From positions 2,464,001 through 2,528,000 of the forward strand of contig OY970340.1 of the NCBI GenBank assembly GCA_963717465.1: DNA of 64,000 bases, written 5' to 3'. This document shows, piece by piece, positions 2,534-35,889 of the stretch. A program made the position numbers and the translations under genes. Source of the DNA: Candidatus Bathyarchaeota archaeon. Lineage in GTDB: Archaea > Thermoproteota > Bathyarchaeia > Bathyarchaeales > Bathycorpusculaceae. The notes beneath the pieces were generated by a model. That model worked only from the letters and a program-made list of their open reading frames with translations, did no database searches and was not told the DNA's origin. The number at the start of each line of letters is the position of its first letter. Positions within the stretch are counted from its first letter, which is position 1.

Positions 2534-4510
2534 CTACTTGCCTCCTTGAGCGACAGCTTGTGCGGGTTGGGCTGCTTGTGATGGAGGAGCAGTTTCTTGA
2601 ACTTGGATTTTTGGTGGCATGGGGGTTTCTTTTATGGCTTTTTCAACGATGGGTATGTATTCGCCTAAGCCTAATTCTTTGAGTTTTTCAGGAGTGGGAA
2701 TTCCCTGAGGTGTCCATCCTCTTGAAGCGTAATAGTCGTCTAATCCAAGCTGCATTTCTTCGTCGTTTACGCAAACACCTTTAGCTGGACCCTCATCTGG
2801 AACTGGGAAATGCTTGATTTTGTATGGCACGTCATCGTATTTTCGTGTGCCTTTGCCTTCACGTATGTTGAATACTCGGGCAAGGTTTTCTATTCTGTCG
2901 CCATCTTTCATCATTTCTTCAACTGTGATAGGTATGCCCGTGGCTAAAGTGTAATAGTTAACGATGTCCTTCCAGCCATCGTAGTATGTGCCTCTGCTGA
3001 ACTTGCAAACGATGAGTGAGTCAATAATGTTATACATGTAGCTTTCATCAGTGATCATTTTGCCTCGTCCTTTCTCAATCTTGAAACGGTTAACTTTGCC
3101 TTTCACATCAGGAGAATAAGCGCCATTTCTTAAGTGACATGCACCACGGAAGGCTACCGAAAATCCCAACGCTGCAGTCTTCAAGGTTCTTAAATCGTAA
3201 CCTGGAAGTTCCAAGCCTTTAATATGACAAGCGTACTTGTACGCATCACCACCAATTATTTCAGCAGCTTTCGCTACGCCTTCAGCTAACGCGCTACCAA
3301 GCCAGCCGTCACGTTGGCCAATCTTGTGGATTATTTGGATTAACGCTTCCGCGTTTCCAAAACGAAGATCAATACCGTCAGTTTGCTCTTTAGTTATAAC
3401 TCCATGTTCGTAACAGTCCATTGCAAAGGCAACAACTACTCCGATAGATATGCCGTCCATGCCATACTCGTTAACGATTCTCATGGCTTCAATTATGGCA
3501 TCTAAACGGTCAATTCCGCATAATGGTCCCATACTCCAGAGACACTCAAATTCCAATCTGGAAGTTGAACCTTTGTATGGTCCTTCTGGAACCTGGGCAA
3601 TGTGGTCACAACGCATGCCGCATGTTGCGCAACCAACAACTTTCTTTACGTAATGCTCGTTTAAGTATTCACCACTCACCCTGTCGGCACCCTCAAAGGT
3701 TGCGTTAGACCAGTTCCTTGTAGCTAAAGCAGAAAGAGAATTTAACACTAGAACATTTTCAGGAGTTCCCAGCGTTTTGTACTTCTTTGTTGCTGGACCC
3801 TTCATACGTTCATGAATCAACTTCACGAAGTCCATGAAGCCAGTCCTATTCGCAACGTTAACGTCATGCGTTCCACGCACTGCAACAGCTTTGAGGTTTT
3901 TTGAGCCCATAACTGCACCCATACCAGAACGCCCAATCGCTCGGAATTCATCGTTAATTATGGCTGCGAATCGGCAGAGTTTTTCGCCTGCTTCACCGAT
4001 GGCTGCAACACGAATGTAAAAGTCGTTTAGTTCCTCACGAATACCTTTGTCCGTATGCTCAATCGTGGCATGCTTTAGGTGTTCAGCATTCATGATCTGG
4101 ACTTTGTCATCATCAATCCAAAGGTAACTGAGCTTGGGAGCTTTACCAGTAATTATAACAGCATCATAACCTGCACGTTTAAGGTCTGGACCGAAGAAGC
4201 CATGCGCTTCAGCATTACCGATACCACCGGTAGCTGGAGACTTAGATACCACAGCGTAACTGTTGCCGCCTGTTGGACCCATGGTCCCGCTAAGCGGACC
4301 TGTTAAATATATAAGTGGATTAGATGGGTCAAAAGCGTCTGCACCTGAAACAGAATTGTCCATCAGAAGCTTTATGCCTAAGCCTATGCCTCCGATGTAG
4401 TTTTTTGCTAATTCTTCAGTTAGAGGTTCGGTTTTCGTTTCCCCTGTTGTTAAGTTAACACGTAAAATTTTTCCTGCGTAAGCAAACATTCCCTTTTGCC
4501 TCGGAATCAC
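2534..4510 (-). CDS. aor: Tungsten-dependent aldehyde:ferredoxin oxidoreductase
   Basis: GKILRVNLT, KSPATG, GR.GMGAVMGSKNLKAV, CATCGMRC, RGACH motifs. Confidence 0.93.
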   Translation of the reverse strand: MIPRQKGMFAYAGKILRVNLTTGETKTEPLTEELAKNYIGGIGLGIKLLMDNSVSGADAFDPSNPLIYLTGPLSGTMGPTGGNSYAVVSKSPATGGIGNAEAHGFFGPDLKRAGYDAVIITGKAPKLSYLWIDDDKVQIMNAEHLKHATIEHTDKGIREELNDFYIRVAAIGEAGEKLCRFAAIINDEFRAIGRSGMGAVMGSKNLKAVAVRGTHDVNVANRTGFMDFVKLIHERMKGPATKKYKTLGTPENVLVLNSLSALATRNWSNATFEGADRVSGEYLNEHYVKKVVGCATCGMRCDHIAQVPEGPYKGSTSRLEFECLWSMGPLCGIDRLDAIIEAMRIVNEYGMDGISIGVVVAFAMDCYEHGVITKEQTDGIDLRFGNAEALIQIIHKIGQRDGWLGSALAEGVAKAAEIIGGDAYKYACHIKGLELPGYDLRTLKTAALGFSVAFRGACHLRNGAYSPDVKGKVNRFKIEKGRGKMITDESYMYNIIDSLIVCKFSRGTYYDGWKDIVNYYTLATGIPITVEEMMKDGDRIENLARVFNIREGKGTRKYDDVPYKIKHFPVPDEGPAKGVCVNDEEMQLGLDDYYASRGWTPQGIPTPEKLKELGLGEYIPIVEKAIKETPMPPKIQVQETAPPSQAAQPAQAVAQGGK

Positions 4511-4521
4511 TTTTCAAGACG

Positions 4522-4559
4522 ATTAACTTAGTTGGTATATATTAACTTAATTGGTATAT
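4522..4559. repeat. 19-bp tandem direct repeat just upstream of aor
   Basis: ATTAACTTAGTTGGTATAT / ATTAACTTAATTGGTATAT, one mismatch. Confidence 0.8.
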
Positions 4560-4698
4560 ATAGCAAAATTTAACGTTTGATTTCGACTTGTTTTTCCATA
4601 CATAACACTTAAAGCCATATTTTTTGACAAGCAAACCCTTGATAAAAATAGCGAAAACTTAAACAAACCGCCTGCAACACTCTCAACAGGCGAAGAAA

Positions 4699-5766
4699 TT
4701 GAATCGAATACACGCTCTAAAACAAGTAGCGTTCAAAAATCGAGAAATAGATAGCATAATAATTTTTAGCAATCCAAATTTAACCTATTTTACGGGTTTT
4801 TCAGGAGCAATGGCTCTACTTATCCCTGAAAGAGGCGATTGCATCCTATACGTTCAAAACGTTAACTTTGCCCAAGCGAAAGAACAGGTCCACGATTTAA
4901 CCGTTGAATTAAGAAAACCCAACGAAAACCTAATGGACAAGATCGTAAAGCAAGCAGCGTCGACCAAGAAAATTGGAGTAGACACGCTTCAGATTGAAAG
5001 TTGGCAACAACTCGCTAGAGCCGCTGGCGGAGAAGAAAAACTGGTGCTTTCAGGAAATCTCGTTCGTGAATTACGTAAAATTAAGGATGGGGAAGAAATC
5101 AGTAGTATTCGTGAAGCTTGCAGGCTAGCTCAAGCCGGGATGCAAGCGGCTTTTGAAACAGTAAAACCAGGCGTGCGGGAAATGGAAGTGGCAACTCAAA
5201 TCGAGTTTGACATGCGCAAGAACGGTTCTTACGGAACTGCTTTTGACACAATCGTTGCTTCAGGCCCAAGTTCAGCTTTTCCACACGGCAGCTGTTCGGA
5301 TAGGGTAATTCAGGAAGGCGACTTTGTAGTTGTTGACTTGGGGGCAACCTACAAGTTTTATCGTTCAGACATGACGCGAACTTTTATAGCGGGAAAAGCT
5401 TCTGAAAAACAAAAGAAAATTTACGATACTGTAATTGATGCTCAGGACAAAGCGTTCAAGGCTTTAAAACCAAATATTACTGGCAAAGAAGTTGACACTG
5501 TTGCTAGACAGTTTATTGAAACGGCCGGTTTTAATGATTATTTTTCACATGGTCTTGGTCATGGAGTAGGTTTGGATATTCATGAACCTCCTACGTTGAG
5601 TCAGGAAGGAAATGAAGTATTGAATGCGGGTAACGTAGTAACGGTTGAACCAGGCATTTACATCCCTGGTTTCGGCGGCGTGAGAATAGAAGACACAGCA
5701 TTAGTAACCAAAGAAGGAGCCGAAAAATTAACCAGCAAATTTTACTCTCTGCAAACGGGCAAATAG
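4699..5766 (+). CDS. Xaa-Pro aminopeptidase/dipeptidase (M24B)
   Basis: PHG, DLG, SDMTRT, HGLGHGVGLDIHE, EPGIY, GVRIED. Confidence 0.93.
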   Translation: MNRIHALKQVAFKNREIDSIIIFSNPNLTYFTGFSGAMALLIPERGDCILYVQNVNFAQAKEQVHDLTVELRKPNENLMDKIVKQAASTKKIGVDTLQIESWQQLARAAGGEEKLVLSGNLVRELRKIKDGEEISSIREACRLAQAGMQAAFETVKPGVREMEVATQIEFDMRKNGSYGTAFDTIVASGPSSAFPHGSCSDRVIQEGDFVVVDLGATYKFYRSDMTRTFIAGKASEKQKKIYDTVIDAQDKAFKALKPNITGKEVDTVARQFIETAGFNDYFSHGLGHGVGLDIHEPPTLSQEGNEVLNAGNVVTVEPGIYIPGFGGVRIEDTALVTKEGAEKLTSKFYSLQTGK

Positions 5767-22050: not shown

Positions 22051-23919
22051 ATGCAAACGACCCGAATAAACAAAAAAATCGGAAAAAAATTGCAATTAGA
22101 GAAAGGAGTGAAATGCGAATCTTTATTTGAAAACATGCTTGACGGTTTTGCCTATTGCAAAATGGTTTTTGGTTCTCAGGGCAAACCTGTTGATTTCATT
22201 TGTTTGCAAATTAACGATGCTTTATTAAAACTCACTGGAATAAAGAAATCTGAAATACTTGGAAAGAGAGTCATTGAAGCAATTCCGAGAATAAAACAGG
22301 AATACCCCGAATTATTTGAGATTTACAGCAGAGTTGCCTTAACTGGAAAAGCGGAGAAAGCCGAATTTTTCTTCAAGCGGCTAAACATGTGGTTGTACTT
22401 TTCAGTTTACAGTCCAAAGAAAGGCTACTTTGTCGCAATATTCGAGAATATAACTGAGCGTAAAAACACTGAAGCTGCTCTGAAAAGTGACGCTGAACGG
22501 TTTACAGCTTTAGCAAATTCTTTGCCTGAAATAATTTTTGAAACAGACGCGAATGGAAAAACAACTTTCGTAAATCAAATTGCTTTTGAAACTACTGGTT
22601 ACACACAGGAAGATATCAACAAAGGATTTCAAGAGTTGATTGCTCCAGAAGATTTTGAAAAAGCTAGAAAAGACTTTGCAAGTGCAATGGTAAATTCTTC
22701 AACTACAACCAATGAGTACGTGTTCAGTAAGAAGGATGGTAGCAGATTTAACGCGATTATAAAAGCAGTGCCAATTAAATCTAGCAGCAACGTTGTTGGA
22801 TTAAGGGGTATTGTTACCGATATTACTGAACAGAAAAGAATGAACGAAACTCTTGTTTTTCAAAGTCAACTGCTTGAAGCTGTCGGGCAAGCCTTAATTG
22901 CGACAGATAAAGACAATGTTATTCGTTACTGGAATAAAGGAGCTGAAAATCTTTACGGGTGGACCGCAGAAGAGGTTCTGGGAAAAAATGTTGATGAATT
23001 TTTAACGACTGAGGTAATTAAAAAACAGATAACTATAGCCTTGGACCGGTTCCTTTCAGGCGAAAGCTGGTCTGCTGAAATTCAAATTAAAGACCGTTAT
23101 GGCGAAATGTTTCCTGTAATTGTCACGATCAGTCCTGTTTTTAACAAGAGCGGCGAATTCGTAGGGTCGATAAGTGCCTACACTGACATAACAGATCAAA
23201 AGAGCGTAGAGCTTGACCTCAAAAACTACGTTAACGAAAATGCTAAGGCAACAAAGAAAATAAAAGAGTTAAATGAAAAACTCCGAGTAATTGCCAGCTT
23301 AACAAGACACGATATCAGAAATAAACTCGGGGTTTTAAACGGGTACATATACCTGCTCAAAAAACAAATTTCAGATAACGAAATCGCAACGAAGCATTTA
23401 GCTAAAATGGATGAAGCCTCAAAACAATTGCTGACCATTTTGGAATTTGAGAGGGTTTATGAACAAATCGGTTCTGAAGAACTCGTTTACGTGAATGTTG
23501 AAAAATTCTTCGCTGAAGCTTCCGCGCTAGTATCTGACCGCAAAGACATAAATTTTGACTGCAACTGCGAAGGATTAGAAGTATTAGCTGACTCTTTATT
23601 GCGCCAATTATTGTATAACTTAATGGATAATACATTAAAATACGGAGAAAAAACTACTCTAATCACTCTTCATTTCCAAAGAAGCGAGAAGTCCCTTCTT
23701 CTCATCTACGAGGATAATGGAGTGGGAATGACCGATGATGTTAGATCTCATCTTTTTGAGAAAGGCTTTGGCAAAGGAACTGGGTTTGGCCTTTACATGA
23801 TAAAACGCATAATTGAAGCCTACGGCTGGAGTATAGAAGAAAACGGAAAATTAGGTGTCGGCGCCAAGTTTACAATGAGAATACCAAAAAACAAGTTTAG
23901 GCTGAAGAGAGATGTCTAA
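22051..23919 (+). CDS. Multi-PAS sensor histidine kinase, paralog of 12762-14636
   Basis: Same architecture; RHDIRNKL; long shared DNA stretches. Confidence 0.92.
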   Translation: MQTTRINKKIGKKLQLEKGVKCESLFENMLDGFAYCKMVFGSQGKPVDFICLQINDALLKLTGIKKSEILGKRVIEAIPRIKQEYPELFEIYSRVALTGKAEKAEFFFKRLNMWLYFSVYSPKKGYFVAIFENITERKNTEAALKSDAERFTALANSLPEIIFETDANGKTTFVNQIAFETTGYTQEDINKGFQELIAPEDFEKARKDFASAMVNSSTTTNEYVFSKKDGSRFNAIIKAVPIKSSSNVVGLRGIVTDITEQKRMNETLVFQSQLLEAVGQALIATDKDNVIRYWNKGAENLYGWTAEEVLGKNVDEFLTTEVIKKQITIALDRFLSGESWSAEIQIKDRYGEMFPVIVTISPVFNKSGEFVGSISAYTDITDQKSVELDLKNYVNENAKATKKIKELNEKLRVIASLTRHDIRNKLGVLNGYIYLLKKQISDNEIATKHLAKMDEASKQLLTILEFERVYEQIGSEELVYVNVEKFFAEASALVSDRKDINFDCNCEGLEVLADSLLRQLLYNLMDNTLKYGEKTTLITLHFQRSEKSLLLIYEDNGVGMTDDVRSHLFEKGFGKGTGFGLYMIKRIIEAYGWSIEENGKLGVGAKFTMRIPKNKFRLKRDV

Positions 23920-24461
23920 ATTAATCTTTGACAAATATTGCATATTGAAGGAATCAGAAGGTTTAGCATTGAATTCTTTGCTACCTAATTCGAGTTTAGG
24001 CTAAAAAGGGCAGCGCCACATTGGTGTTGAAAAAATTTGAAAAATGCAATTATAAATTAATTAATAACCATAATAATCTATTTTGTAGCACAAATTCGAA
24101 TTAAAGTATAATTTAGCTTAAATATTCTGAATGTCAGCTACTATTTCGCGCTCGTTTACCAAACCGTGCGCTATTCACCTCAAGGTGGTGGCTAAAGGAG
24201 AGCCAAACTCCCAACCTTTAGTCACTACCTTCAATACAATTTTAGCGTTAACACGTTTCAATTTTTATTTTTTCTATTATTTCCAAGATATAATGCTTTG
24301 TCAGGTTAAAATTAGCAAGTTTCAGAAGAACTGTGTTGGAAATATCACTCATACGGAGCATTGGCACTTAATGGAGACGATAATTCTTTCTGAACTTTGC
24401 CGTGACAGTCGGGAACTAAAAAAGAAGTTAAAAAAAGAATATAGGATAACTATTTACTTGT

Positions 24462-24869
24462 CTACTCTGGTAGACCTGGAAATTCGCCTTTAATCTGCTG
24501 ATAAACCTTCTTTAATGGCTCTTCAACTGGCATCATGAAACCCAGATCACCCAGGTCACCCGACAACAGTGACATGGCTCCTTGCGAAAACAACGCGTCA
24601 GCACCCATCTTACCAGACCACCAATCATTTAGGTATTTAAGCTTAAGATACTGAATCGCCGCATTAGCCTCATCAACACTACCCTTATTCACAACCCACT
24701 TCTTACCCTTCGAACCAATCTGCCAAACAACATCAGGAACATCACCAATACTCAACTCAACAATCATGTCATTCTCCTGATCCTTACACGCATCAATAAT
24801 AGCAGGATCATCAGCAAGCTTAGAATACAACTTATACGCGAAATTCATCAACTTATCCTCATAAGACAT
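24462..24869 (-). CDS. SCP2 sterol-carrier-like protein
   Basis: ~135 aa; W..GKM.A..LF.QG.M...SGD pattern resembles SCP2. Confidence 0.6.
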   Translation of the reverse strand: MSYEDKLMNFAYKLYSKLADDPAIIDACKDQENDMIVELSIGDVPDVVWQIGSKGKKWVVNKGSVDEANAAIQYLKLKYLNDWWSGKMGADALFSQGAMSLLSGDLGDLGFMMPVEEPLKKVYQQIKGEFPGLPE

Positions 24870-24953
24870 AACATCTATCTCCTTTCATTTTATATTTTTA
24901 CATGCAGATAAAAAAGAAAAAGAAGAATATTTCTGTTTTGGTCTGCTGCCAAT

Positions 24954-25607
24954 TTAGGTTTTGCCTACGAGCATTCGTGCCTTTTTGATTGCGTCTCCGC
25001 AGTCTGCACCCCAAGTATCAGCCTTAATGCGTTTGCAGAAGTCATCAGTCATCGGTGTACCGCCAACAAGAACCTTGTACTTCTTACGAAGACCACGCTC
25101 AACAAGCGTATCAACGAGTGCTCTCTGATAAGACATACTGCTAGTCATCAAAGCGCCCATCGCAACAATATCAGCATGAACTTCCTCAGCCTTCTTCACA
25201 TAATCCTCAGTCGGAATCTCTTCACCTAAATCATAAACATCAAAACCATCAGTACGCAACATATCAGCAATCAAGTTCTTACCAATACTATGAATATCAC
25301 CAAACGCTGTACCGATAACAACTATGCCTTTTGCCTTTGGCAACTTATCTTTGGGATACTTTTCCTTAAGGTAGTTAACTGCAGCAGTCATCGCGTTAGC
25401 AGCCATAATTACGTACGGCAATGGGTATTCGAAGCGGCCAAATCGGTCACCAACTTCCTTAATGCCAACTGATAGGCCTTTCTCGATAGCGTCCATAATT
25501 TCCAGTTTGTTTTCTACTGCTTCTTTAGCCGCTGCAACAGCCGCATCCTCATTATAATCAATGATTGCTTTAGCGAGGTGTTCAAGTACTTCAGCCTTAG
25601 TTACCAT
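24954..25607 (-). CDS. Methyltransferase cognate corrinoid protein (MttC/MtmC-like)
   Basis: Cap domain plus GDIHSIGKNL B12 motif, GALMT, VGG. Confidence 0.93.
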   Translation of the reverse strand: MVTKAEVLEHLAKAIIDYNEDAAVAAAKEAVENKLEIMDAIEKGLSVGIKEVGDRFGRFEYPLPYVIMAANAMTAAVNYLKEKYPKDKLPKAKGIVVIGTAFGDIHSIGKNLIADMLRTDGFDVYDLGEEIPTEDYVKKAEEVHADIVAMGALMTSSMSYQRALVDTLVERGLRKKYKVLVGGTPMTDDFCKRIKADTWGADCGDAIKKARMLVGKT

Positions 25608-25629
25608 AGATAATCCCTTCTTTGTCTCC

Positions 25630-27204
25630 TTAGAACCTTGCTCCGGTTCCTTTCGTGTCTATTGCATAGCCGCCGATCTGTAGTACTTTGTCGTATTTGG
25701 CTACGATTGAATTCATTCTGTCAGCTACGTCTTTTGGCGGCAGTGGAGCAGGGAACTCCTTAACGATTTTCTGGGTTAGAGCGTATGCGCGGTCATCAAA
25801 GCCAAGTTTGTCTTCAATCCATCGCAAATATTGCCTCAACTCGTATAAGCCATAACCATGGCGCATTGGGAAGAAGCCTATGTCAGTCATGGTCTGTAGA
25901 GTGTGTTTTTCCTTCATGAAGTCGCCTCTTGGACCCTTAGTAAGCCATTGATCGGGCATGAAAGCTTCAGGTGAAAAATCTAAGTCTTTGAAGAACCACG
26001 AAAGCAAACGAAGCACTTCTGCTAGTTCAGTGTAGCCTTCTGGTCTGATTCCGTTTGGACCTACTGTTGTAGCCCAACAGCCACATTGGTCGGTAGCCAT
26101 TTGGAAGGCGTTGAATATGTGGTAAGTTAACATACCAGCTTGTGAGTCTGCGGCAGCTGCTGTGCCTCCCATGTTACATCCTGGCCACATGGTTGCTTTT
26201 GGTGTTGGGTAGTTGTTGTGCCAGAAGCTCACGTGTAAAGCTAATCCTTTGCTGAATTGTTCTTCAGTTCCTGCTAACATTTGTGTGTATGGGTCCATTG
26301 GCATCACTAGGTCGTAGGTCATGTCAGGGATATGGCCTTTCGCGATTCCGCCTTGTCCAAGAGCTAAAGCTACTGCCATTGATGCAGATGCAGCAACAGT
26401 CACTGTGTATGCTCCTGTTATAGTGCATGGACCTTGGAATCCAGGTATGCAAACATCAGTGTGGTCTATAAGTAGAGGTCTGCCTTTTGTCCAACCTTCC
26501 AAAGTTTGGCTCATTCTGTCACTTGTCTTTTGGCCGAAAACTAAGCCTGGTGTGTCTCCATGGTTAGTAATAAATGGTCTCTTAGCGACTTCGTCTAATC
26601 CTCCGAGCACTTCTGCAGCTAAATCAGTATAGCAGTCAATATGATCAATTGCATCAATATGCCAAATGTGTTTGGTAGTGCATTGAATAGTGCTGTTAAG
26701 ATCATGAGTATCCACTGGCAAACCAGCTTCTGCCAAGTCCATAGGCAGGAAAATTGGGCTCGTCATGTCATACTCGGGGAAGTACTCAACAATCTTTTGC
26801 TCTCTCCAGTTGTCAGCGTCAACACAGTCTCTGAATTCATATTGGTGTGTTGCTAGATTCAATTTGGAATATAGTGCCATGATGCCGAAGCCTCCGCGGA
26901 AAACTCTGCCGCTTCCGCATTCCATGAATATGTCGTTGTTTGGCGTTCTTCCTGGCAAAATTTGGTAACTTGGTATTGCATTTATGGCTTCAACTGCAAG
27001 ATTTTGAGGTATCTTTACGATTCCTTTTTTCTCGTCAGCGACGGTGCATCCTAAGTCTTTGTAGACTTTTTGAAGTTTAGGAGTAACTCCTCCCACTCCA
27101 ATTTTATCCAACAGAAACATTGCAGTATTATGGATTGTCATCAATTCTTCTTTTGTTGCTATTGAACGTGTAAATCTTCTAGGTATATTTACTCCTGTTC
27201 TCAA
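25630..27204 (-). CDS. MttB-superfamily corrinoid methyltransferase, no pyrrolysine
   Basis: IH..A..LL.KIG, GPCTITGA, DSQAG, GPRGDF...HT; no in-frame TAG. Confidence 0.8.
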   Translation of the reverse strand: MRTGVNIPRRFTRSIATKEELMTIHNTAMFLLDKIGVGGVTPKLQKVYKDLGCTVADEKKGIVKIPQNLAVEAINAIPSYQILPGRTPNNDIFMECGSGRVFRGGFGIMALYSKLNLATHQYEFRDCVDADNWREQKIVEYFPEYDMTSPIFLPMDLAEAGLPVDTHDLNSTIQCTTKHIWHIDAIDHIDCYTDLAAEVLGGLDEVAKRPFITNHGDTPGLVFGQKTSDRMSQTLEGWTKGRPLLIDHTDVCIPGFQGPCTITGAYTVTVAASASMAVALALGQGGIAKGHIPDMTYDLVMPMDPYTQMLAGTEEQFSKGLALHVSFWHNNYPTPKATMWPGCNMGGTAAAADSQAGMLTYHIFNAFQMATDQCGCWATTVGPNGIRPEGYTELAEVLRLLSWFFKDLDFSPEAFMPDQWLTKGPRGDFMKEKHTLQTMTDIGFFPMRHGYGLYELRQYLRWIEDKLGFDDRAYALTQKIVKEFPAPLPPKDVADRMNSIVAKYDKVLQIGGYAIDTKGTGARF

Positions 27205-27253
27205 TTTTTTCCATCCCTTTTTATTATAGCTGACTTAATTGGTCAGCTTTATC

Positions 27254-27335
27254 GATATTTAAGTTAGATTATAAGCAGTTTTTGTTTTTAGCGACAATTT
27301 GGGATATTCTAACAATTTCCATCAACATTATTGCA
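27254..27335 (-). promoter_or_regulatory. Conserved promoter/operator element, copy 1 (mttB-like operon)
   Basis: + strand TTATA 27269, GCGACA 27291, ACATTATTGC 27325. Confidence 0.8.
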
Positions 27336-27711
27336 AAATAGACAGCTTTTACAAGAAAATGTAGACTTACTATTTTTAGAATATTTATCAAAGGCATAAA
27401 ACAAGCGTAATCATTAATAGGTTAAAACAAATATTTAATTTATAACTTGAACTTTCATCTCAAACGAACCCTTTTTGCTATGAAAATAGCTAAAAAAAAC
27501 TTCAGGTATATGCATCTATTCTAAAGTAAGTCTTTTTTGATTTCTGATGAGGAAATTGCTGCTACTTTACTATTTTCTATGAAGAGAATGTTTTAGCAGG
27601 TTGATGGAAATATTTTAAATATACAAGTAAGCGCTAAAATAATTTGCAAGCGCTCAATTCAAATCTTTTAAGAAAATAAAGAGATGAGTAATTCATCTCT
27701 CATTATTCCAT

Positions 27712-29073
27712 TTAGCCCCAAGTTGGGTAATCAAAACCCATGTCTTTGAATTCTTTTGTCACTTTTTTGTACAGATCTACACATTCCTTTCTAGGTTTCA
27801 AAGTTTCTTGGTCATAGAATTCGTATAGGTTTCGCGATAGCACACTCCAGTCAAATGCCTTCAATGCAGGTGTAAACTTTGTTATGAGTTCTTTTATTAG
27901 CTTGGTTCCTTCGCTTACCTTTGTGCCAGCTGCTGCTCTTGTGAATTCACTTCCGAATTTTGCGCCCAGAGGAGGTGTACTACCGACTTCCCACATTCCT
28001 TCCATGCCTGAGATGCAAGCAGTCATACAGGCTGCTGCTGTTCCGTACCAGTCAGCTTCAGTCATTGGTATGTTTAAGCCTATTCCACTTGAAATCCATG
28101 GAGCTTTTATGTTTCGGTCTGCAGCTAACGCCATTGCCGAGTTAGCCCAGAAAACGTCTGCGCCTACATATACGTTATCAATTGTGTTGGTCATAGCCTG
28201 TGTGAAGGAACCATCTGCATAGGCCATTTGACCTAGCGAGTGAGCCATAGCTTCAAGAACTGCTTCTTCAGGAGAACTGATGTAACCGTACAGTGTTGGG
28301 CTAGTACTCTGCCATGGAACTATTTGGTGTTGCATAGCGAAGTAGGCAAGATTAACTCTGTCAAGAACAAGACGCATATCCTGAAGTATGTGAACTGGCA
28401 TCATGCAGTTTCGGTTTGTATAGTATCCAGGATCAAAAGCGGAGATTAGAGCGATCATGCTTGTTGCAGTCATAGGTATACCCAGTAACATGCCAGGTCT
28501 TCCAGCGGCGCGTGCACCAGCAGTCAACAGTTCGCATTCAGTGTGAACCATAAGTGACTCAGTAGGTGTGCCACCGGTAGGTTTCTGACCAAAAGAGGCT
28601 TCAATTATATTAGGAATCATGCCGTCAGTTGTAGGTTCCCTGGCAACAAGATAAACAGCGTCTCGCCATTGTGATAAGTCGCTTCCCATCCATCCAGCAG
28701 CATTCAAGCAGTATGGATGTTGTTTATCCTCTGGACCTCTAGGACGCATCCTCAGTATGTCCCTGCCTGTTCCCCACTCAACCTCCTGCTTTCGTGTCTT
28801 CACAACTTCTCTGAGCTCTGTTTCAGTGAATTTCACCAAGTGCTTGGTATCCTTGCAGTACAATCCGCATTGGACAAGCAATTGTATGCTGGCTTCGTAG
28901 ATAGCATCAGCCATTTGTGCATCTGTCAAAATTGGTTCGCCATCCCATTTAATCTTGTAATCTTGGACTAACTGCTTTACTTTCTCGGGAAAAAAGGTAT
29001 TTTCAAATTCGTCTTCCTTCATTATTGGACCAGTTCTGGTTCTTTCCAAAACTTCCCACAATAAATGACCCAT
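27712..29073 (-). CDS. MtmB-family (monomethylamine methyltransferase-like) protein, no pyrrolysine
   Basis: CGLYCKDT..VKFTE.E, GTGRD, AGRPGM; no in-frame TAG. Confidence 0.88.
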   Translation of the reverse strand: MGHLLWEVLERTRTGPIMKEDEFENTFFPEKVKQLVQDYKIKWDGEPILTDAQMADAIYEASIQLLVQCGLYCKDTKHLVKFTETELREVVKTRKQEVEWGTGRDILRMRPRGPEDKQHPYCLNAAGWMGSDLSQWRDAVYLVAREPTTDGMIPNIIEASFGQKPTGGTPTESLMVHTECELLTAGARAAGRPGMLLGIPMTATSMIALISAFDPGYYTNRNCMMPVHILQDMRLVLDRVNLAYFAMQHQIVPWQSTSPTLYGYISSPEEAVLEAMAHSLGQMAYADGSFTQAMTNTIDNVYVGADVFWANSAMALAADRNIKAPWISSGIGLNIPMTEADWYGTAAACMTACISGMEGMWEVGSTPPLGAKFGSEFTRAAAGTKVSEGTKLIKELITKFTPALKAFDWSVLSRNLYEFYDQETLKPRKECVDLYKKVTKEFKDMGFDYPTWG

Positions 29074-29108
29074 ATTTTCTCACCAAGACTAATTAATTCA
29101 ACCTGATT

Positions 29109-29190
29109 GCTAATTAAACTAAGTTATAAGCCAGTTTCAATATTTGCGACAAAGAAGGACATTTCAACAATCATCATCGACATTATTGCG
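29109..29190 (-). promoter_or_regulatory. Conserved promoter/operator element, copy 2 (mtmB-like)
   Basis: TTATA 29124, GCGACA 29146, ACATTATTGC 29180. Confidence 0.8.
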
Positions 29191-29366
29191 TGACAGGGAT
29201 TCTTTTTGAGACAAGGTTGAATGAACCTTTTTTGGCTTACTTATATCTTGAGAAAATGAGAAATTTTCAATCAACTAGTTGAATCAACCTTTTTTAATCT
29301 AAGCTTTGCTAAGTTTTTGGAAGATTAAAAAAAGAATAAAAAAAATAATCTTAAAATCTATGGTTC

Positions 29367-29762
29367 TTAGTATTCAACACCGGGTAGTGTTTTTGAAACT
29401 TCGGATAAACGACCCAACGATTTCTGGTGCTTCATTGCCTTCATCATGTTGAGCTTTAGTTTAGCTTTCTGCGCGTTAATTTCGCCTTTGGCAATACCCG
29501 CATGCATAGCATAAGTAGCGGTGGTACCAAATTCTGTTTGTTTGGAACCAAGATCTGCGGCTTTGGCCTCGCTAGCGGTAACTTTTCCGTTCTCAATAGT
29601 TAGGAGAAAAGCTTTCGGCTGCCCATCTGGACCTAGCACATCAGAGAATACATACATGAAATTTGTAGAAAGCGCTGCTTTCTGAAAAGCTTCATCTTTG
29701 TTCATGGCGTCAGCGTACATCTTATAATATTCTATTGTTCCAAATTTTACCAACATATTCAC
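29367..29762 (-). CDS. SCP2-like protein
   Basis: FGT.EY...Y..A.N.D...ENGK...ATY......GEIN pattern; GGAGGTG near start (exact start uncertain). Confidence 0.65.
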   Translation of the reverse strand: MNMLVKFGTIEYYKMYADAMNKDEAFQKAALSTNFMYVFSDVLGPDGQPKAFLLTIENGKVTASEAKAADLGSKQTEFGTTATYAMHAGIAKGEINAQKAKLKLNMMKAMKHQKSLGRLSEVSKTLPGVEY

Positions 29763-29846
29763 CTCCCATAAAACCTTTAAGCAAGAATCCGTTTTTCATT
29801 TTGTTCAACCTGAACGCTTGTTCGTCTTCGATATGAGGTTCCACTT

Positions 29847-29927
29847 AATATTTAAATTGAATTATAGCTTATTCCAATTTTTTGCAACAAAATAGGCTTT
29901 TATAATAAATATTTGCTACATTGCTGT
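29847..29927 (-). promoter_or_regulatory. Conserved promoter/operator element, copy 3 (SCP2-like gene)
   Basis: TTATA 29862, GCAACA 29884, ACATTGCTGT 29918. Confidence 0.7.
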
Positions 29928-30127
29928 AGAAATAATAATCATTTTGGCACAAATGTGCAATACTCCAATCTCTTCGAATCAAAGAACAAGATGAGCTTCG
30001 ATAAAACACAAAAAAAATTGTTAAGACATCTGTTTTGCTATGATATTAAAAAATTATCACTTTCGTGTAATTTAATACGCACAACGATAAATAAAACTAA
30101 AAAAAGAGGAAAGTTTATTGCAAGTTT

Positions 30128-32440
30128 TTATGGTCCGTACGATCCGATGTTTGCTGAGTACACTTTAGCAAGCTGAGATTTGAAATTCCAGGCTCCAAGT
30201 TCAGCGCTAAGATGCTCTGGGCTATCTGGAATTGTGACATTGATATTCCAGTCTGTCCAGCCATAGAGCGTTGGCTCCTCAGCTGGCAATTCAGGACGCC
30301 ACCAACCATGCTCAGGAGACACAATCTTTGGATTAACACCAAAATCATACCGCACCGTCTGCATACACCTACCAAGCGGCGTCTCAATGTAGATCCATTC
30401 ACCATCGCCAATGCCCATGTTACGTGCCGTCAAAGGATGCATTTTTACGCGAGGGACTGGACGCAAATGCCGCATCAAGCTGAGATGTCGATGCTCGCCA
30501 TGCTGAGCCTCTTGGAACCGTGCACCGCTACACAGAATCATAGGATAATCCTTAGCGATGTCAGGCGCACTAATCGGAGTCCAAGGATTCTCGACATAAT
30601 ACGGTATCGGGTCATACTCCAACTGCTCCAGTATGGTGGAGTAAAGCGCAACTTTACCCTCAGGAGTTCCAAAGCCTCTGATCTGTCCAGTCTCAGGATC
30701 AAGCTCCTCATACTTCTTAAATCTAGGTTCATACGGCGGAACACCCTTCCACTCCTTTATAACTTGTTTATGCGTCCAGCCAACAGGCTCATAGAACCAG
30801 TCCGCCATCTCCTCTAAAGTTTTCCAAGGCATGGCTGCGTAAGTTTTGTTCTCGCCAACAACTGCAACTGCCAGATCGCGGAATATTATGCTGTCATCTT
30901 TCAGATCCCACAATCCAGGAATTTTCTGAGGCAGCGCCCGATCACCTGCAATCTCAAACTCAACTGATCCCTGAGTTGAAACAGTCCCATAACCAGACGG
31001 CCTCTCAAACTGACTCGTACCAGGCAACACATAATCTGCAAGCATAGCCTCAGGAGTCATCGAAGCACACTCAATGTACACAAACAACTCAAGCTTCTTT
31101 AGAGCCTCATAAACCTTCTTTATGTTCGCATAACACCTCATTGGACCACATTCACCAGCAAACATCGCTTTAACTGGATAGGGCTTGCCAGTCAAAATCG
31201 TATCTATTGTACTTGGGAAATGTGCACCTACTGGTCCAGCATACCCAGCACCCTTCCAGTATCCTTGAGCCGTCTCTGACGCTTGAATAAGACCACCACC
31301 ACTAAAGCCTCCCATCCTGTATGTCTCGCCGCCTATCTGTTTTCCCCAATCGCTGTTAGTCCCGCTAATTGCTGTTTGGAACGCCTCACAAGCAGTGTGG
31401 AATTTGGGTCTTGCATGTAGGTATTCGCCGCCTTCAATGTCGACGTTGCCAGTTAACGCCGGTAGCATATATTTGGATCGAACGTTGTTCATGGAGTTTC
31501 TACCACCTGATTCAATGGCGTAGCCATATGGGAAAGAACATGGACTATTTTCAACTATGAAGTGAGCAGCTTCCCTAATCTTCTCAGCTGGAATCCAAGT
31601 AATTTCCGCAACCTTCTCAGGAGTGTACTGCTTAACACGTTCTTTTAGCTTGTCAAAGCCAAAGCACCATTTCTCCACAAAGTCATGATTATACAAATCC
31701 TCCTCGATGAGAACATTCAGCATAGCCAGCAAAAATGCAGTATCAGTGCCAGGTCTAATGGCCAACCATTTTTCAGAAATCCGAGCGGTCTCAGTAAAAC
31801 GTGGATCTATGCAGAGCATTTTCGCGCCTCCCTCCGTTGCGGCAACGAAACCTGGCCACGCATATGTCCAAGACTCCATAGCATTATTACCAATATTAAA
31901 TATACCCTTAGTCTTACCTGGAATCATCATTGCGTATGTTAATCCCACGCCATAGCCTAATCCTAAGGCTGAGTACGTGGGTCCGGCTCATTGCTGAGCT
32001 GCAGCCGACGCAAAGTTCGGACTGCCCGCTAACATGTGGAAGAAGCCAAGTCCTATGCCCAAGTTTGCAGCTCGACCGGTGCCAAAAAAGCCGCATAGTG
32101 ATTCGCCACCGTACTTTGCAATAAGTTCCTTCGTTTTAGCGCCTATTTCACTACATGCCTGCTCCCAAGAGATTCTTTGCCATTTACCTTCACCTCGTTT
32201 GCCAATGCGTTTAATTGGGTACATCGGCCTATCCTTATGGTAAATGTACTCTACACTGTATTTCCACTTCTGACAATAAGGCCCAGGATTAAAAGGGCTT
32301 TCCCAGTCAGGCTCAACCTTGGTTATTTTACCGTTCTCAACAGTCTCAAGCAATTGACAAGATCCAGTACTGCAAAAACCGCAAACACATCTATGCAATC
32401 CATCGTATGCTTTTGGGTCTTCAATTTTAGTTTCACTCAT
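30128..32440 (-). CDS. Mo/W-bisPGD oxidoreductase (DMSO-reductase superfamily, acetylene-hydratase-like), 770 aa read through in-frame TGA at codon 151 (probable selenocysteine)
   Basis: The two track ORFs share a frame and are separated only by TGA 31990-31988; N-terminal CGFC...C...C Fe-S motif; IDPR, IRPGTD, DYVLP, GKV.LYS, V...HGWW motifs. Confidence 0.88.
31944..31981 (-). promoter_or_regulatory. Candidate SECIS hairpin just 3' of the in-frame UGA
   Basis: CCCACGU/GCGUGGG lower stem, AGCCU/AGGCU upper stem, G-containing loop UAGGAUU starting 23 nt after UGA. Confidence 0.6.
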
Positions 32441-32491
32441 TATTTTCTCTCCTATTTAACGAATACAAATTTTGATATATGTGGTCTAGTT

Positions 32492-32572
32492 GATATTAAG
32501 CTAGATTATAAGCCAATTTTAGATTTTGCGACAAAAAAGGACATTTCAGTAAATAACATCGACATTATTGCA
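32492..32572 (-). promoter_or_regulatory. Conserved promoter/operator element, copy 4 (oxidoreductase)
   Basis: TTATA 32506, GCGACA 32528, ACATTATTGC 32562. Confidence 0.8.
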
Positions 32573-32649
32573 GAACAAATATTTCTCCTAACACAATGTT
32601 GACCTCACACTTTTTTAATTACTAATGCAGCGTAAAAGCAGAATTAAAA

Positions 32650-32870
32650 ATAACGAAGGCATCCTAGCGGGCAATGGCACAGACAATTCAGTGAGCATTA
32701 CTTTCTCATAGCCTACAGGTGGCTAGAGAAAAGGGGATTGAGCTTCTCTATAGCCACCATCTAAAGGTGAACAGGTTACTTGTTTGACATCCCCATCCCT
32801 GTCATAGCAGAATTCGACCATCAGGCGAATTTTCCTGCTCAGGTTTACCCACTTTAAGTTCCCGTTTTAT
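32650..32870 (-). ncRNA. Candidate structured non-coding RNA of unknown family
   Basis: GC-richer, multi-hairpin stretch with no ORF, between promoter copy 5 and a T-tract. Confidence 0.55.
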
Positions 32871-32888
32871 TTAGCATGAAGGATCATT

Positions 32889-32971
32889 GATATTTAAATT
32901 AAATTATGAAACTAGTTGCAGTTTTTGCAACAAAATAGGCATTCATGTAATTGTTAGCCTACATTATTGCA
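32889..32971 (-). promoter_or_regulatory. Conserved promoter/operator element, copy 5 (upstream of candidate ncRNA, divergent from regulator)
   Basis: TTATG 32904, GCAACA 32927, ACATTATTGC 32961. Confidence 0.75.
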
Positions 32972-33088
32972 GAGAGAATAGTTTTTATCAACATAATTGT
33001 TCAATTTATTATCTGCTCATATGGATATCGGCTTTTGCTAGCATATGAAATACAAAAACTTAAAACTGCCTTGTACATAGTATAGGGC

Positions 33089-33697
33089 ATGAGCCAATTT
33101 TTTAAAAGGCAAGATACCTCAGACATGAAAGTACCTGTAAACTTGAAAGTCCTATTTGCCCTTCTGGCGTTAGGTGGTAAAAGCGACAGGGAGATTGCTA
33201 AAAAACTAGGTATAAACAATTCGACATTATCTAGAAGAAGAAAGAAGCTTGAAGAAGAGGGTTACATAAAAGAGTATACATTATTGCCCGATTTCCACAA
33301 AATGGGGCTTGATATTATCGTTTTTTCATCCTGCTCAACTTCTGATGTGGTACCGACAGAAAATTCTAAGTATGTTCAAGAATTAGTCAATAAAATTCCC
33401 GAAATGCTGTGTCTTTTTGAAGACCATGATGTAGCGGGAACAAACTGGTTTGCCGTAACTGTACATAGGAATTATGATGAATTTGTAGAATTATACAAAA
33501 ATGTTATGGACGAAATAACATCCATGCATTTACATGTGCCACGTGTAGAATCGAAACGCCTCGTATTTCATACGAACAAACTGTATCCAAAACCTTTCTC
33601 ACTGCGACAATTGAATGTTATATTTCAAAACAAGAGAAGTTTTGAGCAACCTCAGCGCAGGAAGCATGACACTAAAATAACAACTGCTGATGCCTAA
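33089..33697 (+). CDS. Lrp/AsnC-family transcriptional regulator
   Basis: SDREIAKKLGI..STLSRRRKKLEEEGYIKEYT..PDF.K.G HTH. Confidence 0.88.
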   Translation: MSQFFKRQDTSDMKVPVNLKVLFALLALGGKSDREIAKKLGINNSTLSRRRKKLEEEGYIKEYTLLPDFHKMGLDIIVFSSCSTSDVVPTENSKYVQELVNKIPEMLCLFEDHDVAGTNWFAVTVHRNYDEFVELYKNVMDEITSMHLHVPRVESKRLVFHTNKLYPKPFSLRQLNVIFQNKRSFEQPQRRKHDTKITTADA

Positions 33698-33875
33698 AAA
33701 GGCTGCCATGGAACCTGCAAGTGAAAAGTTACAAGTGAATTTATAGTAAATACTGTGTTTCACAATACTCCAGAAGAATCGCTTATTCCTAGGATAGCCC
33801 TTTAAAAACAGCATTGTTAAGAAATGAATTTAAGGCTAAAAATAGACTTGTTATTAATATATTTGGTGTCATTTT

Positions 33876-34523
33876 TTGGTTAAAAGAAAAATCGTCAATA
33901 TAGACCCGTCACTCTGCAACGGTTGCGGAGCATGCATTCCTAAATGCGCTGAAGGTGCGCTGCAAATGGTTAACGGAAAGGCAACAATTGTCAAAGAGAC
34001 CTACTGCGATGGGTTAGGCGCTTGTCTTGGTCATTGTCCTCAAGGAGCTATAACGATCACTGAGAGAGAAGCTCCACAATTTAACGAGAAAGAAGTGCAT
34101 GAATACTTGAAAAACAAACAGCAACGGGGAAGCAAAGGCTTATTAATTCAAGACTCTGTGAATCCGCAATGGCCAATTAAGTTAAATCTAGTGCCCGTTA
34201 AAGCTCCCTTTTTTGAAAATGCTGACTTGTTAATCGCAGCAGATTGCGCTCCAGTTGCATTCAAGCAATTCCAGGATAAATTGTTACCAGGCAAAAAGAT
34301 TGTTATTGGATGCCCTAAATTTGATGACGCCAGAGCTTATGCACAAAAATTCTCTGAGATATTGAAACAAAACAATATAGCAAGCATCACAATAGCCCAT
34401 ATGGAAGTGCCCTGTTGCAGCGCGTTAAATTGGGTTGTAGCTAAAGCGTTGGAAACATCAGGCAAGAAAATTCCAGTTAAAGAATATGAGATAACAGTGA
34501 AGGGAGGAATAAATGAGCTCTGA
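33876..34523 (+). CDS. Iron-sulfur cluster-binding protein
   Basis: CNGCGACIPKC, CDGLGACLGHCP, QWPIKL, GCPKFDD, MEVPCC. Confidence 0.85.
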   Translation: MVKRKIVNIDPSLCNGCGACIPKCAEGALQMVNGKATIVKETYCDGLGACLGHCPQGAITITEREAPQFNEKEVHEYLKNKQQRGSKGLLIQDSVNPQWPIKLNLVPVKAPFFENADLLIAADCAPVAFKQFQDKLLPGKKIVIGCPKFDDARAYAQKFSEILKQNNIASITIAHMEVPCCSALNWVVAKALETSGKKIPVKEYEITVKGGINEL

Positions 34524-34770
34524 AGAAAAAAAGTCGTCAGAGAAAAATCCTCAAATATGTCCGGGTTTGAAAGACTTGCTTCAGCCTAAACCATCATATA
34601 TAAAGTGTCATGTTTGCGGTGGCGATTTAGAGATTTGGAGTGATGAAGATAAAACTACGTGCCCCGAATGCGGAGCTGAATGGAAGCGCCCAGATAAAAG
34701 TGGAGCTTGCCTAGAGTACTGTGAACACGCAGACAAGTGTAGGGCAATAATTAACTCAAGAAAGTATTGA
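34513..34770 (+). CDS. Small Cys-rich metal-binding protein
   Basis: CPG, CHVCG...EIWSDE...CPECG, CLEYC...DKC. Confidence 0.7.
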   Translation: MSSEEKKSSEKNPQICPGLKDLLQPKPSYIKCHVCGGDLEIWSDEDKTTCPECGAEWKRPDKSGACLEYCEHADKCRAIINSRKY

Positions 34771-34800
34771 ATAAACAGAAAATTATAGGCAGGTGTATGG

Positions 34801-35889
34801 TTGAACCGCTTTGAAGAAAGACGCAAAAGAACACAAGAATTAATGGTTGAAAAGGGTGTTGCCGCATTACAGGTAACAAGTCGAGAAAACTACTATTATC
34901 TAACAGGAGACATCAGAAACGTTGCACGGTTATTTCTTCCTCAACAAGGCGACCCAACAATAATTGTTTTTGATGAGGAGGTTGAGGATGCAAAAAAGGC
35001 GTCGGGAATTTCAGATGTCAGAGGCTGGCGTACTCCAGCACAACTTATGCAGCATTTCTTTCAAGCAGTAAAAGAGCACGGCGTTGCTGATAAAAAAGTG
35101 GGTTTTTGCATTCATTCTAACCCAGGCTTTCTCGTATACAAGTTTTTGAAGTCAAACTCAAAAATGCAGATTATCGAAAACGAGGAAATTCTCATGCCAC
35201 TTCGTTACGCTAAGGATAACGAGGAGTTGGAAGCAATGAGGAGAGCTGCAAAGGCAGCTGATAAGGGCATTGAAGCAGCAATCGCAGCAGTTAAGCCTGG
35301 TGCAACAGAAATTGACGTTGCCGCGGAAGCCGAGTACGCCATGCGCAAAAGTGGAACAATGCGTTATGGCTCAAGCACATTTGTGGACAGCGGCCCTCAC
35401 TCGATTTATTTGCATGGTGGAACTACGCATAGAAAGATTGAGGCTGGAGACTTAGTGGTTATCGACGTGCATCCAGTCGTAGATATGTACTCAGCAGACT
35501 GCGCCCGAACAGTGGTATGCGGTCAAATTTCAGAAAAGCAAAAAGAACTAATTAAAACATACGACACGATCCAAAAAGCAATTATTCAAAACATAAAGCC
35601 CGGCTGGAAAGTAGGTCAAGTAACCTCTGCCTTTAACGAAGCTTTCACAGCCAAAGGTTTTGGAAACGTTTGGATTCCAGGTCCCGTTCACGGCGTTGGC
35701 TTAGAGTTTGAAGAATGGCCTCATCCAAGCCACTACGGTGGACACCTTCAACTTGAAATCGGCGAAAACTGGACCTTAGCTATCGGCCACAGCATACTCC
35801 CAGTAAAGAACGTGGGCGGAGTAAAACTTGAAGACACAATACAAATTACTCCAGATGGCGGAAAAAGCCTAACTCAAGCGCCAACATAG
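34801..35889 (+). CDS. M24-family peptidase/amidohydrolase
   Basis: Creatinase-like N-domain (ENYYYLTG), ADCART, HGVGLEFEE, GGVKLED. Confidence 0.85.
   Translation: MNRFEERRKRTQELMVEKGVAALQVTSRENYYYLTGDIRNVARLFLPQQGDPTIIVFDEEVEDAKKASGISDVRGWRTPAQLMQHFFQAVKEHGVADKKVGFCIHSNPGFLVYKFLKSNSKMQIIENEEILMPLRYAKDNEELEAMRRAAKAADKGIEAAIAAVKPGATEIDVAAEAEYAMRKSGTMRYGSSTFVDSGPHSIYLHGGTTHRKIEAGDLVVIDVHPVVDMYSADCARTVVCGQISEKQKELIKTYDTIQKAIIQNIKPGWKVGQVTSAFNEAFTAKGFGNVWIPGPVHGVGLEFEEWPHPSHYGGHLQLEIGENWTLAIGHSILPVKNVGGVKLEDTIQITPDGGKSLTQAPT

Follow-up and report, generated by a model that had tools for sequence, protein, structure and literature searches.

A 46-copy promoter element with predicted Lrp operator boxes precedes Mo/W enzyme, methyltransferase and small RNA genes in a bathyarchaeon

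We analyzed a 64,000-nucleotide stretch of the genome of a Candidatus Bathyarchaeota archaeon (assembly GCA_963717465.1, contig OY970340.1, positions 2,464,001 to 2,528,000 of the forward strand; hereafter the window, in whose coordinates positions are given unless marked 'genome'). It carries a repeated element of about 80 bp among genes for a molybdenum/tungsten (Mo/W) enzyme, two methyltransferases and a regulator of the Lrp/AsnC fold. A sequence-only reading of the window had described five copies on the + strand, with TTATR at 27269, 29124, 29862, 32506 and 32904, GCRACA 22-23 bp later and ACATTRYTG 34 bp after that. All five are present at these positions: the first offset is 22, 22, 22, 22 and 23 nt, the second is 34 nt in every copy, and the two ACA triplets are 31 nt apart. 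The full pattern matches five times in the window, with no match in any of 100 dinucleotide shuffles, and a strict two-box regular expression finds only these five places in the 3.05-Mb genome. The five copies are thus real, but the count was too low, as a sixth lies in the window and the genome holds 46.

Each copy reads as a distal box, a proximal box, the position of the transcription factor B recognition element (BRE) and a TATA box. Copy 1 (27255..27335, -; distal box 27335-27323, proximal box 27299-27287, BRE position ATCTAAC at 27269-27263, TATA box TTAAATAT at 27262-27255, predicted start near 27232) lies upstream of a predicted operon (24462..27204, -) encoding an MttB-superfamily methyltransferase (25630-27204), a corrinoid protein (24954-25607) and ORF135 (24462-24869), for which no Pfam hit was found. 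An inverted repeat around the predicted start, ATAGCTGAC-N6-GTCAGCT (+ strand, 27219-27246), is a possible extra repressor site or 5' hairpin. Copy 2 (29110..29190, -; distal 29190-29178, proximal 29154-29142, TATA TTAATTAG 29117-29110) precedes an MtmB-like methyltransferase gene (27712..29073, -), and copy 3 (29848..29928, -; distal 29928-29916, proximal 29892-29880, TATA TTAAATAT 29855-29848) precedes ORF131 (29367..29762, -), which itself lacks a Pfam hit and shares 35% identity with a paralog that matches SCP2. Copy 4 (32493..32572, -; distal 32572-32560, proximal 32536-32524), whose TATA box CTTAATAT (32500-32493) lies one base closer than usual, is upstream of a Mo/W-bis-pyranopterin guanine dinucleotide (bisPGD) enzyme gene of the acetylene-hydratase family (30128..32440, -). 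In copies 1-4, 44-93 nt separate the first T of the TATA box from the start codon.

The remaining two copies have no enzyme behind them. Copy 5 (32890..32971, -; distal 32971-32959, proximal 32935-32923, TATA TTAAATAT 32897-32890) is followed by a noncoding hairpin region in place of an open reading frame (ORF), with a predicted RNA of about 210 nt (32650..32867, -; ends inferred). Copy 6 (24045..24125, +; distal 24045-24057, proximal 24081-24093, TATA TTAAATAT 24118-24125), which the sequence-only reading had not seen, lies upstream of a predicted hairpin small RNA (24147..24275, +). Back to back with copy 5 stands the regulator gene (33089..33697, +), whose 202-aa product has a winged helix-turn-helix (HTH) followed by a RAM-like domain, carries Ser36 and Thr37 (FL11 numbering), and is the candidate reader of the local copies. 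The gene's own promoter (33053..33067, +) is different, with a purine-rich CAAAAAC at the BRE position and TTAAAACT 29 nt before the ATG, and is predicted to be leaderless.

A genome-wide profile scan, which the sequence-only reading had proposed, returned the 46 copies: iterated nhmmer from the five seeds converged on them at E<0.01, while the best match in the reversed genome had E 2. A two-box position weight matrix (PWM) gave 42 sites scoring >25, against 1 in reversed controls. The copies fall into 12 genome clusters. Rather than a local regulon of five sites and one protein, the window copies belong to a 46-promoter, roughly 18-regulator system. By our own assignment of classes, the copies stand before 8 Mo enzymes, 6 MttB proteins (plus 1 broken), 2 MtmB proteins, 4 SCP2-like proteins, 3 FAD enzymes, 2 old yellow enzymes (OYE), short-chain dehydrogenases/reductases, a CrtC-like protein, a corrinoid protein, hdrC, one regulator, one unknown ORF, 10 hairpin RNAs and 3 other noncoding stretches, 1 of which also has the core of the RNA family described below. 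Among 742 pairs of copies more than 100 kb apart and with different gene classes downstream, identity was 0.90 in the TATA box, 0.73 in the proximal box, 0.54 in the distal box and 0.49 over the 12 nt before the TATA box; the spacers were at 0.34-0.38 (expected 0.29). The boxes are kept while the spacers drift, which argues that boxes and spacing are under selection and not the residue of passive duplication.

The sequence-only reading had taken the TTAT motif for the TATA-like element. The conserved TATA box is instead TTAAATAT, which on the minus strand lies some 12 nt further downstream, and TTAT falls at the border of the BRE region; 41 of the 46 copies contain TTWAWWA, compared to 14 of 46 for the YATAA of that reading. 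Two spacings make TTAAATAT the likely TATA box. TTAAA lies 29-31 nt upstream of the ATG in six regulator genes, whose starts we read as leaderless, and eight small-RNA hairpins begin 26-31 nt after TTAAATAT. Calibrated on these six genes and eight hairpins, the distance agrees with the archaeal rule of about 30 nt from the first T to the start, and predicted starts therefore fall about 12 nt further downstream than the start-site test attached to that reading assumes. For copies 1 to 6 they lie near 27232, 29087, 29825, 32470, 32867 and 24148.

At the BRE position these promoters depart from the purine-rich consensus. Pyrimidines occupy both -6 and -5 in 37 of 38 regulon boxes of the form TT[AT]AATA, compared to 39 of 160 other intergenic boxes of that form, some of which will not be promoters (p 1e-17). 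The position is anti-consensus, and is conserved in its own right, with A at -3 in 92% and C at -1 in 76%. In archaea, activated promoters typically have weak BREs, and their activators bind upstream of BRE and TATA (PMC5512572). We read the pyrimidine-rich BRE position as the mark of an activator-dependent promoter.

Upstream of it lie the candidate operator boxes. The proposal that they are phased, 31 bp apart, holds in all five window copies first described. Genome-wide, the proximal 13-mer TTTTGTgGCaaAA begins 37-38 nt before the TATA box in 45/46 copies, and the distal box, TGCAAtaaTgt.a, begins 35-38 nt before the proximal one in 44/46 (in a search limited to 34-40). The distal box starts with TGCAA in 22/46, or in 37/46 when one mismatch is allowed. 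A third half-site, TGAAA, starting mostly 22-23 nt before the TATA box, is present in 27/46 compared to 3/46 in a control spacer. Archaeal Lrp dimers bind 13-bp sites of the form abcde-WWW-edcba, with TGCAA-WWW-TTGCA preferred by Ss-LrpB (PMC2715240), and such sites are spaced by two or three helical turns, from which Lrp activators recruit TBP (PMC2995911). The TGCAA start of the distal box is the Ss-LrpB half-site. Tested against the 13-bp form, the distal box fits partly, and the proximal box fits only as an asymmetric TTT-centered site and not as a dyad; in the register 31 bp from the distal box it has a TTT center and a conserved TGTNG half, so that both boxes carry TGT at that distance. 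The spacing is of the type described for feast/famine regulatory proteins (FFRPs), 31 bp and then about 20 bp to the third half-site. The site next to the BRE is only the weak TGAAA half-site, with the strong box two turns further upstream.

The neighboring protein had been called Lrp/AsnC, and the data bear this out. It has a Pfam HTH_24 match, its structure model shows an HTH followed by a RAM-type topology (pLDDT 69.7), and the top Foldseek hits of the model are ST1022 and other Lrp/AsnC proteins (E 3e-8); profile hits include FL11, LrpA and LrpC. Its C-terminal domain has no Pfam hit. Using tblastn we found 27 matches in the genome, which reduce to 18 close intact paralogs once a two-domain fusion is merged and two broken copies and five distant members are dropped (some of those counted as intact have a stop near the C-terminus). 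The suggested tie between regulator and element is upheld by location: 11 of the 18 have a copy no more than 1.1 kb away, compared to 2.7% of random positions within 1 kb, and a paralog lies within 4 kb in 9 of the 12 promoter clusters. One copy (genome 2817491, +) is upstream of an Lrp paralog gene itself, a possible case of positive autoregulation. At least six other paralogs instead have leaderless promoters with a purine-rich BRE. The fusion is a tandem of two Lrp units in a 434-aa frame (locus L013, positions 4079-5380, +), with Thr36 in one and Ser36 in the other.

If the paralogs read these boxes, then their recognition residues might covary with the operator. In the published code, Thr37 contacts base a, Ser36 bonds G or A at base b, and Thr or Ala at 36 goes with T (PMC2715240). 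Ser36 and Thr37 of the window regulator accordingly predict TG, and base b is the variable base of the proximal site. It is a purine in 7 of the 8 promoters whose nearest paralog has Ser36, compared to 4 of the 25 whose nearest paralog has Thr or Ala there (Fisher 5e-4; 13 promoters were left out, ten beside the mixed Thr/Ser fusion and three without a regulator within 25 kb). Of 113 positions, base b tracks residue 36 of the nearest paralog best, in the predicted direction, and the two Ser36 regulators belong to different clades.

Collectively, these data are consistent with a model, to which we assign a probability of about 0.68, in which the copies are activator-dependent promoters, with TBP and TFB recruited by the local Lrp paralog, probably with its ligand bound, as it wraps sites near -67, -36 and -16. 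Each repeat would be a complete regulated archaeal promoter, in which phased predicted Lrp operator boxes are followed by a BRE that departs from consensus and a TATA box that follows it (TTAAATAT); the predicted start of transcription is about 30 nt past the first T. Counting that T as 0, the putative 13-bp sites would be TGCAA-WWW-TGTCA at about -67, YYTTR-TTT-TGTNG followed by CRAAA at about -36, and a weak third site beginning with TGAAA at about -16, at spacings of about three, two and two helical turns. The pyrimidine-rich BRE would bind TFB poorly and leave the promoters nearly silent without the regulator, until an Lrp oligomer, probably effector-bound, wrapped the phased sites and recruited TBP and TFB, as for Ptr2, LysM and Ss-LrpB. 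Whole cassettes of enzyme genes, regulator and promoter would have multiplied, each likely to be read preferentially by its own paralog. We infer activation from sites that lie upstream of a weak BRE and a good TATA box, together with the precedent of Lrp activators recruiting TBP from sites two or three turns apart; binding, start sites and paralog specificity are likewise predictions from the DNA.

Several observations weigh against this model. The 31-bp spacing is exact in only 21/46 copies; it is 30-33 bp in 44/46, in a search limited to seven spacings. The distal box has its WWW center in 25/46 and its TGT in only 21/46. The proximal box can be read equally well as the dyad TTTTG-N3-CAAAA (peak dyad score 0.61), whose center is G/C-rich and all-W in 1/46, a non-standard form for an Lrp site; when the box is placed in the Lrp register, its left half shows little conservation. 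Seven of the 18 close paralogs have no copy within 1.1 kb, and 18 further enzyme paralogs inspected in the genome have no clear copy, with one degenerate. The covariation at residue 36 was noticed before being tested and depends on two Ser loci, where promoters of the same cluster are not independent; at the level of loci it ranks 3 of 28 permutations (about 0.11, not significant), and the single-promoter loci 481k and 616k contradict it. Finally, the paralogs carry Ser39, plus a poly-Arg run, in place of the usual Arg/His39, and as Ser at position 39 cannot replace Arg (PMC2715240), the residue-base code applies only in part.

The misfit of the proximal box invites a two-factor explanation, in which another dimeric regulator activates from the dyad TTTTG-N3-CAAAA and the Lrp paralogs occupy only the distal box or act as modulators. 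The dyad is indeed the best-conserved upstream feature, with the tightest spacing to the TATA box, and its G and C are symmetric about a variable center in 40/46 copies, a form that misfits abcdeWWWedcba. However, that variable center base is the one that tracks Lrp residue 36, TGT occurs in both boxes at a distance of 31 bp, and among the loci listed we recognized no further regulator family that recurs, as judged from ORF starts, some of which were scanned. We therefore consider a second factor unlikely. It is improbable, to a higher degree, that a specialized basal factor, a TBP or TFB paralog, reads RATTTAAC-TTAAATAT, or that the Lrp proteins repress. The conserved, rather than merely degenerate, BRE position would suit such a factor, and the genome has two TBPs, two intact TFBs and one split TFB; yet both intact TFBs have the same VTEVT(I/V)RNRY C-terminal helix, which is presumably the one that reads the BRE. 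As for repression, the boxes lie upstream of BRE and TATA, where activators bind, and not over the start site (PMC5512572). A frameshifted TFB copy adjoins an intact TFB (genome 2314839-2318288); a distant Lrp paralog, a corrinoid gene and a homolog of ORF131 lie nearby.

The idea that the repeat was carried along passively as cassettes duplicated, or is the end of a mobile element, and has no present function draws on the many duplications of genes and regulators and on the copies that precede broken genes. Such a repeat would not be expected to keep boxes and spacing while its spacers approach background, or to stand in the right orientation and at the right distance before more than ten unrelated gene classes. 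Beyond the promoter, the only intergenic sequence that the copies share is the small-RNA core. We regard this explanation as very hard to credit, and return to the Lrp-activated promoter as the reading followed below.

The predicted RNAs behind copies 5 and 6 belong to one hairpin-linker-hairpin family. That of copy 5 has a TTCACCT linker and a GGTGGCTA...TAGCCACC hairpin, a core common to 11 loci; that of copy 6 has a 5' hairpin, a TATTCACCT linker, a long second hairpin and a T-rich end. The TTCACCT linker is complementary to the Shine-Dalgarno (SD) sequence. No Rfam match covers either RNA at E<=5, and the sole hit in 23500-35000 is a chance sraA match (E 4.7). The whole RNA behind copy 5 folds no better than shuffled sequences (z -0.94); the only parts of it that stand out are the local hairpins and the family core. 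A MAFFT/RNAalifold consensus misses the second hairpin, the loops differing in length. We considered whether the copy 5 RNA might be a selenocysteine insertion sequence (SECIS) in a 5' untranslated region; this was rejected, as the core recurs at loci without selenoprotein genes and a comparison by eye of the 3' regions of the selenocysteine genes revealed no shared element.

Target tests for these RNAs gave a mixed picture. Twenty-one segments were compared with 2620 start regions, the linker being mis-extracted for two RNAs. The loop of the RNA at genome 1217440 has a regulon Mo gene as its top-ranked target, and two linkers have 4 regulon genes in their top 20 (p 7e-5). For 11 of the 21 segments, including the copy 5 loop, no regulon gene appears in the top 20, and regulon genes have stronger SD sites anyway (p 0.004). 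Given these mixed results, cross-repression of other cassettes by the small RNAs is only a possibility.

The Mo/W enzyme would be 770 aa long if its lone in-frame TGA (31988-31990, codon 151) is read as selenocysteine. In alignment this codon falls on the Cys of acetylene hydratase's motif GSPNWTSAMYMC, and a TGA stands there in ten paralogous Mo enzyme genes, including that of the window. A hairpin of -19.8 kcal/mol follows within the gene (64 nt from 6 nt past the codon's first base), and the stretch that holds it is conserved among the Mo enzyme paralogs. The genome encodes SepSecS and a selD whose frame contains a TGA, along with two tRNA-Sec genes and mcrA, the last as a match above the Pfam cut-off (genome 1664367-1664747) in an open frame of 470 aa. 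Selenocysteine machinery in Bathyarchaeota is mentioned in PMC9499178; a 732-aa ORF after selD (genome 952742-954940), with a kinase-like motif at its start, is possibly the PSTK-SelB fusion mentioned there. The second tRNA-Sec is directly downstream of hdrC-hdrB and a CxxCxxCC gene behind one copy (genome 2829638-2831805, -), and may be co-induced with the selenoenzymes. Another copy (genome 849839, -) faces into an HTH_10 regulator gene in antisense orientation; it stands about 3 kb upstream of sepSecS, and the first tRNA-Sec is about 4 kb away.

In the MtmB-like protein the pyrrolysine position is Gly, and neither it nor the MttB ORF has an in-frame TAG for pyrrolysine; both are open. The corrinoid protein is 95-100% identical in seven copies and ORF135 99% in three, against 68-81% identity among the linked MttB proteins, a contrast that suggests gene conversion or strong constraint. 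Methylated amines, offered by the sequence-only reading as possible effectors, now look unlikely, given an MtmB homolog without pyrrolysine and co-regulated genes that resemble steroid, ring and SCP2 proteins. One co-regulated enzyme is nearest to 3-oxosteroid 1-dehydrogenase (E 5e-75). The OYE hits include an entry named NCR, which we take to be naphthoyl-CoA reductase, and 2,4-dienoyl-CoA reductase, with trimethylamine dehydrogenase also among them; other matches are SCP2 and a CrtC-type lipocalin. The effector is probably a ring compound, hydrophobic or aromatic. Among the relatives of acetylene hydratase, substrate-induced catechol dehydroxylases are the closest (PMC7028382), and O-demethylation of lignin aromatics by an unrelated enzyme is described in a bathyarchaeon (PMC10989822).

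A wider scheme would join these pieces, and we hold it to be doubtful. About 18 Lrp paralogs would share one operator and discriminate by a single residue-base pair (36/base b) and by different effectors; about 11 co-induced small RNAs would mask the ribosome-binding sites of other cassettes; and the cell would thereby pick one selenoenzyme/methyltransferase module per substrate and co-induce the second tRNA-Sec, in a lineage-specific modular system.

We looked for the system in relatives. Of 60 searched for the Mo enzyme family, 1 has it, at 36-39% identity (distant homologs), and the close regulator subfamily was found in 0 of 300 class genomes and 0 of 119 genus genomes, scoring the top candidates of each. 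The multicopy pattern occurs 28 times here and 0-1 times in each relative among the matches listed (250 relatives searched). At 164 loci of distant homologs (160 regulators, 4 Mo enzymes) there was no profile hit below E 0.5, and the one PWM hit, of 23, we treat as chance. A phylum-wide pattern search that skipped the commonest spacing gave 7 matches here and 1 in 400 others, a weak negative. Single pattern matches in seven family genomes are one promoter before a gene that is PadR-like by sequence resemblance, where TTTGTTTCAAYATC stands at a similar distance from TTAAATA; as far as tested, it is unrelated to the regulon. Other assemblies contain nine close homologs of the regulator, and the system is therefore unlikely to be confined to this genome.

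The proposed mechanism is of a known kind, a variant of Lrp activation. Ptr2 of M. jannaschii (at rb2 and fdxA), Ss-LrpB and LysM of S. solfataricus and BarR of S. acidocaldarius (PMC2995911, PMC2715240, PMC4977709) share with it the Lrp fold, 13-bp sites (here putative, and Ss-LrpB-like in their TGCAA) spaced two or three turns apart upstream of BRE and TATA, constrained spacing and a regulator gene beside its targets. In those systems, however, the core site lies a few bp from the BRE and the activators serve few promoters, whereas here the strongest box ends 22-23 bp upstream, with a weak half-site adjoining, the design recurs 46 times, and Ser39 and the poly-Arg run replace Arg/His39. The eight FFRP paralogs of Halobacterium salinarum NRC-1 likewise have similar motifs and have diversified in DNA-binding domain, effector and target sites (PMC4236453); unlike them, about 18 close paralogs of one subfamily travel here with duplicated enzyme cassettes at a fixed operator-to-TATA geometry. 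[quoted passage not shown] The Mo-bisPGD catechol dehydroxylases of Eggerthella and Gordonibacter, multiple paralogs near acetylene hydratase and each induced by its own substrate (PMC7028382), offer a model for one regulator per cassette. They are bacterial, and the paper does not mention selenocysteine. Our literature search, with most subscription papers outside it, turned up neither this promoter nor an Lrp regulon in a bathyarchaeon. What sets it apart from the known systems is the copy number, how far the strongest box lies from the BRE, and the conservation of an anti-consensus BRE.

The 46 aligned promoters are a natural mutagenesis series for the geometry of archaeal activation and for the Lrp residue-base code, one that can be exploited in vitro without culturing the organism. 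The promoter also unites genes of unknown function in one predicted pathway, comprising selenocysteine Mo/W enzymes, non-pyrrolysine methyltransferases, KstD-like and OYE flavoenzymes, SCP2-like proteins, small RNAs and hdrCB with its downstream tRNA-Sec. The ligands of the regulators would point to the substrate of that pathway.

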